A stretch of 64,000 nt of DNA, from positions 17,982,001 to 18,046,000 of the forward strand of contig CM097885.1 of assembly GCA_044892525.1 (NCBI GenBank), given 5' to 3'. The position numbers were made by a program, and so were the translations under genes. Shown in pieces: positions 34,401 through 37,400 of this stretch. This DNA comes from Schmidtea polychroa. Lineage: Eukaryota. A model generated the notes under the pieces. The model ran no database searches. It saw only the letters and a program-made list of their open reading frames with translations, and was not told where the DNA came from. Every line of letters starts with the position of its first letter. The stretch's first letter is position 1.

Positions 34401-37400
34401 TGCTACATGTCTTTGTTTAAATTGCATGTCTTTGTTTAAATTGTATGTCATTTGCATTAATGTTGCATTAATGTTTTTATTATAAATATTGTTTTTATTA
34501 TTATTTCTAATATTATTACTATTATTACTTATATTATTACTATTTCTATTACTATTATTATTATTTCTATTTCTATTATTTCGATTTACAAAAAACAAAA
34601 CAATTCAACATAAAAATTTATTTTGATACAATGTGACTCGAGGGGTGATTTCTCAGAGTCTTCACCAAACACCATTCAACATATTGTTGATAACGGAAAT
34701 TGCAGCAGCTACATCCGAAAATGCAAGGAACCTCTGGTTTCATTTCTTTCATCACCCTTCCTATCTTGATATCCCATAGAAAGGTGTTTATTATATCGAA
34801 TATCCAGATTCGTGTTTGGTTGTATACCAAATCCGGAATGATAGCTGGATCTCTATCTTGTAGAATTTCATTTAATTCTGGATAATAGAAGCATAATCTT
34901 TGCAGGATAATTGATTGATATTGATCTGTAAAAATTTGAAATTAATGTAATAATAAAAATTTGAAATTACCATAATTTGCATGCTCTTTCATTGAGGTGA
35001 TTGCGGAACTTTGTATGTTGTACATTTTCTTGAATAAATGATTTCTAAACAGAAAACATATTGTTTAAATCAATCAATAACTGTTTAGAAATTAACCAAT
35101 TAGAAATTGACCAATGAAATTATCTCATTTCGAACATGGTCAACAAATTCTATATACTCCAAATTTCTCATCCCCAACATGACAACCTTTCCACTAGCAA
35201 ACACGTTGACACATATAGGGTTATATTTTAATAGTCTTAGTGCCGGAAACAATTCCGGTTCAAACATACAATCACATTTTTTCGACATGTTATATAGATT
35301 GATATTATGTCCCATATTCATAGTAACGGTAATTGATTGGATTATAATATTATTTATTCGATATTGTAATTTATTAATATCCAAAGGTTTCTTACATCCC
35401 ATGATTCTGCATTTGCCTGTCTTGTAAAATATTATCGGATATTTCCCGCTTCTATCGATAATTTGCTGGGGTTTCCCTGGTGAGAACCTCATATTCGATA
35501 CATCAAAATTTCCTCGATAATTTATATTTGCTAACATTATTAAATCATTTATGAAAATTAGTCTTTATATACAAATTGAGCACGAGTTCATTAAATCATC
35601 GAATATAAACAAATACACATTTATTTAATTTTTGAAATGGAATTAAGAAATGATGCAATATATCAAATCGTTGGTCCGAGTGGTAGTGGAAAAACATTAT
35701 TTGTTTGCAAATTACTAAAATCAAATTTATTCAAAACAAAATTCAACAGGATTTATTGGCATAGGGGTGCTGATGAAGAACATGGATTGACGCAATCAAG
35801 TTTCTGTAAATTAAAAAACATGAAAATAGTAAAGGGATTTGATAAAAAATGGTCCAGCCGATTAAAGAAAGGTGATGTCATCATTATCGATGATTTGTAC
35901 CAAGAAGCTAATAAAGAAAAAGATTTTAATAATTTATTCACTAAAATCAGCAGAAATGTCGGTGTAACAGTAATTTTCATAACACAAAATCTATTTCATC
36001 AAGGTGGTGCACATCGAACACGTAATTTAAATGTACAATATTTAGTTATTTTCAAGATCCCTAGAGATGCAACAGTGATTGATTTTCTTGCACGTCAAGC
36101 ATACCCTAACAATCGTAATTTTCTTATCAGTGCATTTCAAGATGCTACAAAAATACCTCATGGGTATATATTTCTTGATTTCACACAACAATGTCCCGAT
36201 GATTTACAAGTAAACACAGATATTTTCAACCCAAAAGGTGCCATGGTTTATAAACAAAGTTGAAAACCTCTATGAATAATGATGTTTCTAAAAGCAAGGG
36301 TGAAAAATATTAGGAAATTAAGAAAAAGTATTAAAAAGAGTATTAAAGTTCTAAAAGTTCCACCAACAACTAGTTATACACCATCTAAAAAACTTGTTAC
36401 TGAAAATTTCTCTGCAATGAATCTTATTTCGAAAAATCCTAAACCTATACGTAAAACCAGTAAACGTAAAATCAGTAAAAAGGTAGTTAAAAATCATCGC
36501 AGATTTCTATTTTTTAATGCATTGTTAAAGGCCCCGAGTATGAAAAGAATGAATATATTGCAATCATTCCCAAATTTTGTTGTCGATGATTTACTCAATA
36601 TTATACTTAAAGTAGTCAAAGGCAAAATTAAAATCAGTAAATCAAAAAAGCCTTTATTGAGCAAACATAGGAAACCATTCTTATCTTTAGTAAATAATAA
36701 AAATCGTAAGCAAATGAGGAAAATTATATATAAACAACAAGGTGGATTTATTGGTGCATTGATACCTCTGGCATTATCATTATTAGGTGGAGTTGTAGGA
36801 AATCAATCATAAACAATGGGTGCTAATCCTTCATTGCCCGACATTAAATTTAATTTTAAATCTTCTTGCTGTAATGGAGAAGATTTGGACGAACCCAGAA
36901 GACGAAGCCGGTTTCGGTGGAGTAGCAAAATTAAAGAAAAGAGTTCTGAATTCGAAAAAAGAAACCCAGAAGTGGTTATCAGATCAGCTTGCGTACAGTT
37001 TGAACAAACCAATGCGAAAAAGATTTCCAAAAAGAGCGTATAAAACATTCGGTATTGACGATTTATGGCAAATGGATTTGATGGAGATGATACCGTATTC
37101 GAAAATTAACAATGGGAATAAATATATTTTAACATGTATTAATGTATACAGCAGGTTTGCACGAGCAATACCAGTCAAGGCAAAATCTGCAGAAGAAATG
37201 TCCAAGGCAATTAATATTTTATTTAAAGATGGACATCCTAATAACTTGCAAACAGATTTGGGTATTATTATTATTATTATTATTATTATTATTATTATTA
37301 TTATTATTATTGTTATTATTATTTTAGGTAAAGAATTCTACAATAGCAAAGTTAAGCAAATCCTCGATAAACTGAAAATAAATCACTACTCGGTAAATTC

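Follow-up and report, generated by a model that had tools for sequence, protein, structure and literature searches.

A Polinton-borne family of short TATA-binding proteins and a candidate matching promoter box in the genome of Schmidtea polychroa

Late genes of herpesviruses combine a TATT box (TATTWAA) with a viral mimic of TBP, the TATA-binding protein (PMC4893493, PMC12529657; here and below, statements from the literature refer to the available sections of the papers cited). The mimic made by KSHV (Kaposi's sarcoma-associated herpesvirus), ORF24, is a protein of 752 aa with separate RNA polymerase II (Pol II)-binding and DNA-binding domains, which works in a six-protein complex, retains the four intercalating Phe and has no acidic TFIIB residues (PMC12529657). 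In the TBPs of nucleocytoplasmic large DNA viruses (NCLDVs) the N-lobe regulatory surface is not conserved, the stirrup shows a conservation of only about 40%, and these viruses nearly always encode their own TFIIB (PMC7221094). Here we describe a TBP gene at 35100-35537 (minus strand) of a stretch of 64,000 nt of the S. polychroa genome (contig CM097885.1, positions 17,982,001 to 18,046,000), called the window below. The gene lies in a copy of a Polinton, and we conclude that its product is a genuine variant of TBP, virus-borne and conserved, to which a promoter box corresponds.

A first-pass annotation of the window had proposed a minimal TBP with both repeats, the first much shortened, encoded head-to-head with a packaging ATPase. 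The open reading frame (ORF) is uninterrupted and intronless as claimed, encodes 145 aa with the motifs FEPELFP and VFASGKVV, and its start is separated by 100 bp from that of the ATPase (ATG at 35637). The Pfam TBP match (PF00352) is confined to residues 64–127 (E 1e-14), that is, only the second repeat is reported and the first is detectable by structure alone. An AlphaFold2 (AF2) model from a 77-sequence alignment reached a pLDDT of 95.9 and superposed over its whole length (residues 1–145) on residues 66–240 of yeast TBP (Z 13.2, rmsd 2.4–2.6 Å, ~22% identity); in addition, hhalign aligned the viral protein to TBP with a probability of 99.6. According to the model, the 145-aa ORF is a complete TBP saddle, two-lobed and pseudo-symmetric, and a member of the TBP superfamily. 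The strands of repeat 1 are retained and both of its helices are gone, with no helix of at least 4 residues before residue 81 and with gaps at the helix segments in the alignment with canonical TBPs, so that the description of the first repeat as much shortened was correct. The term "minimal" is appropriate for one subclade only, as a clade of 167–179 aa retains the repeat-1 segments.

The residues facing DNA and the TFIIB surface were counted over the 77 family sequences in yeast TBP numbering. Three of the four intercalating Phe are kept across the family (F116 in 76/77, F190 and F207 in 77/77), and the fourth, F99, is replaced by Pro in 76/77. P191 is also kept. The canonical central Asn pair is broken, with N69 retained in 73/77 and N159 changed to Ser in 74/77. 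Further near-fixed changes of the DNA face are V71N (74/77), V122R (76/77), T124M (77/77), V161T (71/77), I194R (75/77), V203C (77/77) and L205N (77/77). I194, V203 and L205 are the altered-specificity sites of the yeast mutant TBPm3; the N-proximal lobe of TBP touches the 3' half of the box, and G-C pairs place an amino group in the minor groove (PMC1636458). The 167–179 aa clade shows the same changes (to N, R, M, S/T, R and N) and the same box together with its repeat-1 segments, and therefore the DNA-face signature appears to be old and the 145-aa form derived. The acidic C-terminal stirrup, the predicted TFIIB contact surface, is near-invariant (E186 in 75/77, E188 in 77/77), and the N-lobe helices that bear the surface for TFIIA, TAF1, Brf1 and Mot1 are absent in the 145-aa form. 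In agreement with this stirrup, a search for a virus-encoded TFIIB among 38 selected neighbouring ORFs and the window ORFs gave no match, although it could miss a very divergent one. Pairwise dN/dS was 0.12–0.36 in 28 pairs, many of them near saturation; the ATPase sequence of L125, taken with wrong coordinates and showing an internal stop, was left out.

The Polinton protein resembles KSHV ORF24 in having a TBP fold and in accompanying structural genes, presumably late here, that stand behind a variant TATA, and in both proteins polar residues replace hydrophobic ones at the equivalents of V122, V161 and L205 (PMC12529657). It differs in being a 145-aa saddle that keeps the stirrup and has lost one Phe, in its box, and in that no partner genes were found. 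By analogy, it seems to work alike without being a member of the ORF24 type, as a stand-alone saddle which seems to use TFIIB. Among NCLDV proteins, Foldseek related it to the TBP of Heterosigma akashiwo virus (E 2e-8); unlike in those viruses, the stirrup is near-invariant and no TFIIB was seen among the 38 neighbouring ORFs, identity was 13–20% among the top matches, and the family forms its own clade. With cellular TBP it shares the saddle fold, N69, F116, F190, P191, F207, E186 and E188, and it departs from it, and from TBPm3, in the absent repeat-1 helices (145-aa subclade), the lost F99 and the changed N159. TBPm3 is altered at the same three sites, but the viral replacements are not those of TBPm3.

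The gene is far from being restricted to this locus. The host genome (781 Mb) yielded 4124 candidates, and the 150 copies that were scored were all full length, stop-free and 93–100% identical, so at least 150 intact copies exist. Other Polinton subfamilies of the same genome carry versions 53–63% identical to the window TBP, and the cellular TBP of the host is canonical and intron-bearing. Databases contained 105 relatives, 79 of them of 140–165 aa, and 108 cluster representatives reached E 1e-10; in the ESM Atlas the nearest cluster bears an automatic TBP-domain name and hardly any taxon data. Gene context was read for the best 80 of 182 metagenome loci: a Polinton core gene is present in 37 and the neighbouring accessory ORF in a further 13, and the other 30 are short contigs with the TBP alone. 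The viral TBP is thus a gene of a wide Polinton clade in metagenomes. Prokaryote genome contigs gave two loci, one with TBP and box (L205) and one of 4.5 kb with neither a TBP in view nor a box (L204). Searches of viral contigs with two ATPases and the major capsid protein (MCP), and of a phage collection, returned no relatives of this virion class. The sole TBP match on a viral contig (L113) was discarded, being an NCLDV-like contig with a TBP of canonical type. Four contig sets of presumed RNA origin cover the element together with its TBP; as they carry no information on transcription, strand or start sites, they were given no weight.

In phylogenetic analysis the viral TBPs formed a single long-branched clade (SH-aLRT 100). 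The AU test rejected trees in which the window protein joins the TBPs of the host (p=1.6e-10) and did not reject that the family as a whole was captured long ago from a eukaryote (p=0.106). TBP and ATPase distances across 29 loci were strongly correlated (Mantel r 0.93, 0/2000 permutations), mostly through one deep split, and 18 of the 19 host-genome ATPase loci of the same class had a TBP match or remnant by tblastn; the other, L140, gave no TBP match in its 3.6 kb but keeps the box. Sequence comparison thus shows co-inheritance of the TBP with the ATPase and virion module. As a separate observation, TBPs 53–63% identical to that of the window adjoin ATPases 86–97% identical to its ATPase (L124, L127-L134, L143, L176 and L182 vs window 35100-36263), and in another subfamily a TBP 90% identical stands beside an ATPase 86% identical; the left arm, including the TBP, appears to have been swapped between Polinton subfamilies. 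The head-to-head arrangement, to which the first-pass annotation had given weight, is the rule among the host-genome loci examined (L174 being an exception). Among the 26 metagenome loci that contain the two genes a divergent pair occurs in only 2; in the others the TBP is found upstream of a co-oriented ATPase or behind the protease, and so this layout is lineage-specific and not the conserved feature.

The conserved feature outside the protein is a short box upstream of the virion genes. For its scoring, 80 nt upstream of each gene were taken after removal of near-duplicates; as the sequences are related, the counts are not independent trials. Of the 28 ATPase starts, 26 are preceded by the hexamer ATAAAC at no more than 60 nt (1.5 expected), in most cases 31–37 nt upstream, and none has it on the reverse strand (0/28). 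The full site is (T19/C6/G1)ATAAAC(A23/G3), with C at position 7 in 26/26. It also precedes the genes for the MCP (7/11 vs 0.9 expected), integrase (4/12 vs 0.6), core protein (4/5) and minor capsid protein (3/4). TBP starts show the opposite pattern, with the box in 2/58 (2.7 expected) and a canonical TATA (TATAWAWR) in 28/58 (6.3 expected); upstream of the ATPase the canonical TATA is not enriched (4 vs 3.9). In the window, the canonical TATA box TATATAAA lies at 35571-35564 on the minus strand, 34 nt upstream of the TBP ATG, and the variant box TATAAACA at 35604..35611 on the plus strand, 33 nt upstream of the ATPase ATG. The TATA-like motifs noted earlier on both strands are therefore present but not equivalent.

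When the host-genome loci were set aside, the metagenome loci still had the box in 11/11 cases of the near clade and 10/12 of the far clade, in which the ATPase is only ~27–39% identical. Ten modules contained 100 sense copies of ATAAAC (39.6 expected) and 12 antisense (24.2 expected), the window module 6 (1.1 expected) and 0 (0.8 expected), and (C/T)ATAAAC appeared 79 times in nine modules (18.6 expected). A count of ATAAACA in the entire window shows no enrichment (46 vs 37.3, a value reached by 12/100 shuffles), and the significance of the box comes from its position, strand and conservation across elements rather than from a window-wide count. Where the box overlies the terminal Y-K-Q codons of the ATPase, Tyr is encoded by TAT in 21/21 and Lys by AAA in 23/23, against a background in the same ATPases of 109/164 (66%) and 254/362 (70%), respectively; 3/26 ATPases lack this terminal-codon site. 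After the protease gene the box was present in 8 of 10 loci in which another gene follows, mostly 37–41 nt before its ATG, with AATAAA in 1/10. The seven loci in which the protease is last, several of them close kin and not all independent, gave 0/7 for the box and 7/7 for AATAAA. In addition, A never precedes the box (0/26), and AATAAAC shows no excess over expectation (14 vs 16.7). Because the box is tied to the following gene and is never preceded by A, these patterns favour a promoter over a poly(A) signal.

A second abundant Polinton family of the host genome, with a PLA2-integrase and a different MCP (L183-L195, e.g., L186:300-8100), was used for comparison. No credible TBP match was obtained in 13 stretches of this family; one profile match (E ~0.16) corresponded to a coiled-coil ORF and was rejected. 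Its 58 upstream regions have no box at -30, the hexamer is not enriched, and the five ATAAAC matches are all from ATPase copies and abut the ATG. Genes of this family begin immediately after AT-rich stretches whose last letters give AAA-ATG or TAA-ATG, which recalls the late starts of the poxvirus type, and by this analogy they may follow a different or helper-dependent mode of transcription.

We consider that the viral protein is probably, although by no means certainly, an altered-specificity TBP for late genes, analogous to the herpesvirus one, its binding being deduced from sequence. The position of the box at virion genes and of the canonical TATA at the TBP gene agrees with the late-gene switch suggested by the first-pass annotation. 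Beyond the observed fold, residue pattern, box statistics and co-inheritance, the steps of such a switch would be the following. Host TBP and Pol II would transcribe the viral TBP gene from its ordinary TATA promoter. The viral TBP, with its re-tuned DNA face, would then recognise (T/C)ATAAAC(A/G), in which the C at position 7 should be disfavoured by ordinary TBP and would probably be read by the altered N-lobe. With its acidic stirrup it would bring host TFIIB, and thereby host Pol II, to the genes for the ATPase, the core protein, the integrase and the capsid proteins. TFIIA, TAF1, Brf1 and Mot1 bind the N-lobe of host TBP (PMC7221094), and since that is the surface lost with the repeat-1 helices, the 145-aa subclade may have escaped these controls and be dedicated to Pol II. 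Whether a whole clade of integrating nuclear Polintons runs an autonomous late programme in this way, with an ancient TBP of altered specificity as a one-protein switch acting on its own box through host TFIIB and Pol II, is in our judgement evenly balanced.

Other readings of the same data were weighed. That the ORF arose recently at this locus as a retrocopy of a host TBP or TRF gene could be suspected from its lack of introns and from the several TBP paralogues of the host, some intronless, but it is scarcely credible in view of at least 150 intact copies in a Polinton setting, 105 relatives elsewhere, ~22% identity to cellular TBP and the AU rejection of a host grouping; the virus-borne nature of the gene, its own clade and its agreement with the ATPase tree hold. 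It is unlikely that the box, while a real core promoter, is read by host TBP as a weak TATA, with the viral TBP merely an extra unregulated supply. TATAAAC is one base away from TATAAA(A/T), and the viral protein retains P191, F190, F207 and the stirrup; moreover, wild-type TBP was crystallised on a C(-25) TATA variant, according to the title of PDB entry 1qn3, which makes a site of this kind accessible to host TBP as well. However, this would leave the invariant C at position 7 (26/26), the lack of canonical TATA enrichment at the ATPase, the 6/26 boxes that start with C and the fixation of viral DNA-face residues in non-host states without a reason. A dominant-negative mimic, also raised by the earlier annotation, would soak up host TFIIB or occupy host TATA boxes while some other factor reads the box. 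The kept stirrup, the lost N-lobe helices and the missing intercalating Phe would suit such a sink, which nevertheless would need no eight near-invariant new DNA-face residues and does not explain the matching box. The TBP is inherited together with a module in which the genes have a box at the TATA position. We regard such a mimic as quite unlikely to be the main role, the two roles not being exclusive.

A host Forkhead factor might instead use the box as a site setting tissue or stage, the viral TBP being unrelated to it. We take ATAAACA to fit the Forkhead consensus RYAAAYA, GTAAAC occurs in 3/28 ATPase upstream regions (0.4 expected) and TGTTTTA in 8/58 upstream of TBP genes (1.1 expected). 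This is very unlikely, given that the box has one orientation only (0/28 reverse; 12 antisense vs ~24 expected) and a narrow distance to the ATG, that GTAAAC shows no enrichment over the modules as a whole (22 vs 19.5) and that 3/26 boxes end in G. Finally, many boxes lie inside the last codons of the upstream gene, those upstream of the MCP are mostly in one frame, and 117/120 related ATPases end in Y/H-K-Q/H/R, as would be expected if the preceding gene used the box as a variant of the poly(A) signal (TATAAA/CATAAA), or if the box merely followed from conserved Y-K-Q and I-N-K peptide ends. We hold this highly improbable, because the box is kept in non-coding DNA before the ATPase, including divergent layouts without a gene end, A precedes it in 0/26, synonymous codons are fixed, and box and AATAAA show opposite distributions after the protease (0/7 and 7/7 where it is last; 8/10 and 1/10 otherwise).

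Some results weigh against an altered-specificity late TBP. All four Phe are needed in KSHV ORF24 (PMC12529657), and the Polinton family has three. The 122-aa ORF of the virion module has the box in only 2/7 cases, and the accessory ORF beside the TBP has ATAAAC plus TATA in several copies. In 15/53 TBP genes TGTTTWA stands in place of TATA (overlap 1; L036, L038, L047, L076, L077, L080, L091, L094 and others), for which we have no explanation; it is a candidate second type of early promoter. Some start codons were chosen automatically and may be wrong. The TBP-less controls amount to one unrelated Polinton family and one 4.5-kb contig (L204), and the fully read elements include no TBP-less one of the same virion-module class, which is the main gap. 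All box-bearing loci were found through the TBP or are its kin, so the link between TBP and box partly reflects shared ancestry.

The proposed switch touches on the timing of animal Polinton capsid genes, with or without a helper virus. A TBP that has a box of its own speaks for a regulated, virus-like cycle in which no helper is needed. If the switch is real, no smaller viral pre-initiation module is known, and this one would have evolved separately from that of the herpesviruses. The virion genes of Polintons would then have their first general promoter code, and the TBP would form with its promoter a natural orthogonal pair. Few eukaryotic proteins are as conserved as TBP, and a natural family changed at the TBPm3 sites together with a matching box is a model for the rewiring of TATA specificity. 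Two Polinton families in one host, with and without TBP and with different patterns at their gene starts, also make their strategies comparable. In the available text of PMC8502044 (Starrett et al.), TBP appears as a label in the legend of Fig. 5 (MELD viruses, non-animal datasets), with nothing in those sections on the family, its residues or promoter and no such label in the text of the animal adintovirus maps. The terms TBP and TATA are absent from PMC10748475, PMC11161782, PMC11131425 and 10.64898/2026.10.13.758929, and from PMC11296320 (TATA only), and the parts seen of the PMC7221094 supplements name no Polinton. No publication on this TBP family or its box was found in a search that left subscription journals and Repbase outside.

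The element is identified as a Polinton from sequence features spread across its copies: terminal inverted repeats (TIRs), target duplication, integrase, A32 ATPase, adenain, double jelly-roll MCP and protein-primed polymerase B (PolB). It shares the TIRs, 6-bp duplication, chromo-integrase, A32 ATPase, adenain, MCP and Bcl-2 cargo with the Polinton/Maverick (adintovirus) elements that have a pfam03175-type PolB (PMC8502044). A sister insertion (C1:211392545-211398884) has both AGTAG ends and the 6-bp target duplication; it is a 6.3-kb deletion derivative (L005, L214, L215) in which the TBP ORF is still intact. Sister elements encode the protein-primed PolB with an endonuclease VII insert (L098, PF03175, E 2e-21). 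The modelled fold of a natural MCP homologue (L039) is a double jelly-roll that matches iridovirus and PBCV-1 capsids (E 4e-15), an assignment due to the fold search, as the MCP profile had no match among PDB sequences. The window copy itself is defective, since PolB and the right end are absent and both capsid genes and the protease are frameshifted. Its TBP ORF is open, yet it belongs to this defective relic and the proposed function is that of the family. Alone among the 77 sequences, it has no Phe at position 38, which is one of the intercalating sites, and it has 8 non-synonymous and 2 synonymous sites common to at most 2/19 siblings, private substitutions as expected of drift after insertion.

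The left TIR, starting with AGTAG, occupies 31845..32060 (+) and has no matching right end in the window. It is followed by a Bcl-2-like accessory ORF (32878..33192, +; Pfam Bcl-2 E 2e-4), found in sister copies as well, a conserved 139-aa accessory ORF that is the usual neighbour of the TBP (33909..34328, -; no useful ESM Atlas match) and a small accessory ORF downstream of the TBP with a homologue in sister copies (34618..34941, -). The TBP gene, supported by Pfam, the AF2 model and the residue pattern, has a TATA box that would act as an early promoter for host TBP, and the box facing the other way would be a late promoter for the intact A32/FtsK-type packaging ATPase (35637..36263, +; Pfam Pox_A32 E 7e-6). 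As a side observation, 37/53 TBP genes have TCAYW among the final 25 nt of their upstream region (7.7 expected), a candidate initiator-like motif.

A box within the last ATPase codons (Y-K-Q; 36249..36256, +) lies upstream of a basic 177-aa ORF (36279..36812, +), a probable virion core protein by composition and position. The box at 36729..36736 (+) is 87 nt upstream of a small conserved ORF starting with Met-Gly (36816-37043, +), which overlaps the integrase start in another frame and is possibly a myristoylated virion protein. Another box (36808..36815, +) precedes the retroviral-type integrase with chromodomain (36874..37953, +; Pfam rve E 1e-5, Chromo E 2.5e-4), in which an (ATT)n run at ~37255-37320, read in frame as poly-Ile and variable in length between copies, is possibly a small intron. 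The box variant GATAAACA (37879..37886, +) stands upstream of the probable minor capsid gene (37899..38969, +), assigned by position only and broken near 38010 and 38280; this gene is tandemly duplicated in some TBP-bearing elements (L176:3180-5214, L179:2856-4890, L053:5616-7684). The conserved 122-aa ORF of the virion module (38959..39327, +) has a box at 38858..38865 (+) and a second ATAAAC at 38904. The box at 39282..39289 (+) is located 42 nt upstream of the ATG of the major capsid gene (39324..40511, +), which is broken near 39595 and 40157. The last gene of the unit encodes a broken adenain-like maturation protease (40456..40923, +; Pfam Peptidase_C5 on a sister copy), after which come two canonical AATAAA poly(A) signals (40940..40962, +) and no box. 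An intact 660-aa ORF without Pfam match, transposase-like in appearance (41403-43487, -), lies to the right of the truncated Polinton, at the place taken by PolB in sister copies.

WD40 exons of a host gene flank the element on both sides (22345-22815, 44157-44420, 47783-47980 and 48001-48357, -), which suggests that it sits in an intron of this gene, presumably striatin-like by its motif; the host is an AT-rich, intron-bearing eukaryote. The host also has at least 13 intronless, divergent TFIIB paralogues of ~300 aa in tandem arrays (C3:38.2-39.1 Mb and C1:23.8-24.2 Mb; e.g., L206:4575-5486, L207:4685-5596, L208:4636-5538) and several divergent TBP paralogues (L115, L117, L119, L120), and seems to have expanded its basal factors. 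The TFIIB-like genes were considered as Polinton cargo and rejected, lying outside Polintons in the three loci read, one of which has an integrase fragment nearby. Finally, a family of ORFs of 150–175 aa without Pfam match, starting with F-I-D-F-E-A-F, follows the protease in other elements with a box upstream (L053:9591-10052, L060:156-674, L073:5870-6352, L098:6585-7046, L103:2078-3034); we take this start to resemble that of DEDD exonucleases.

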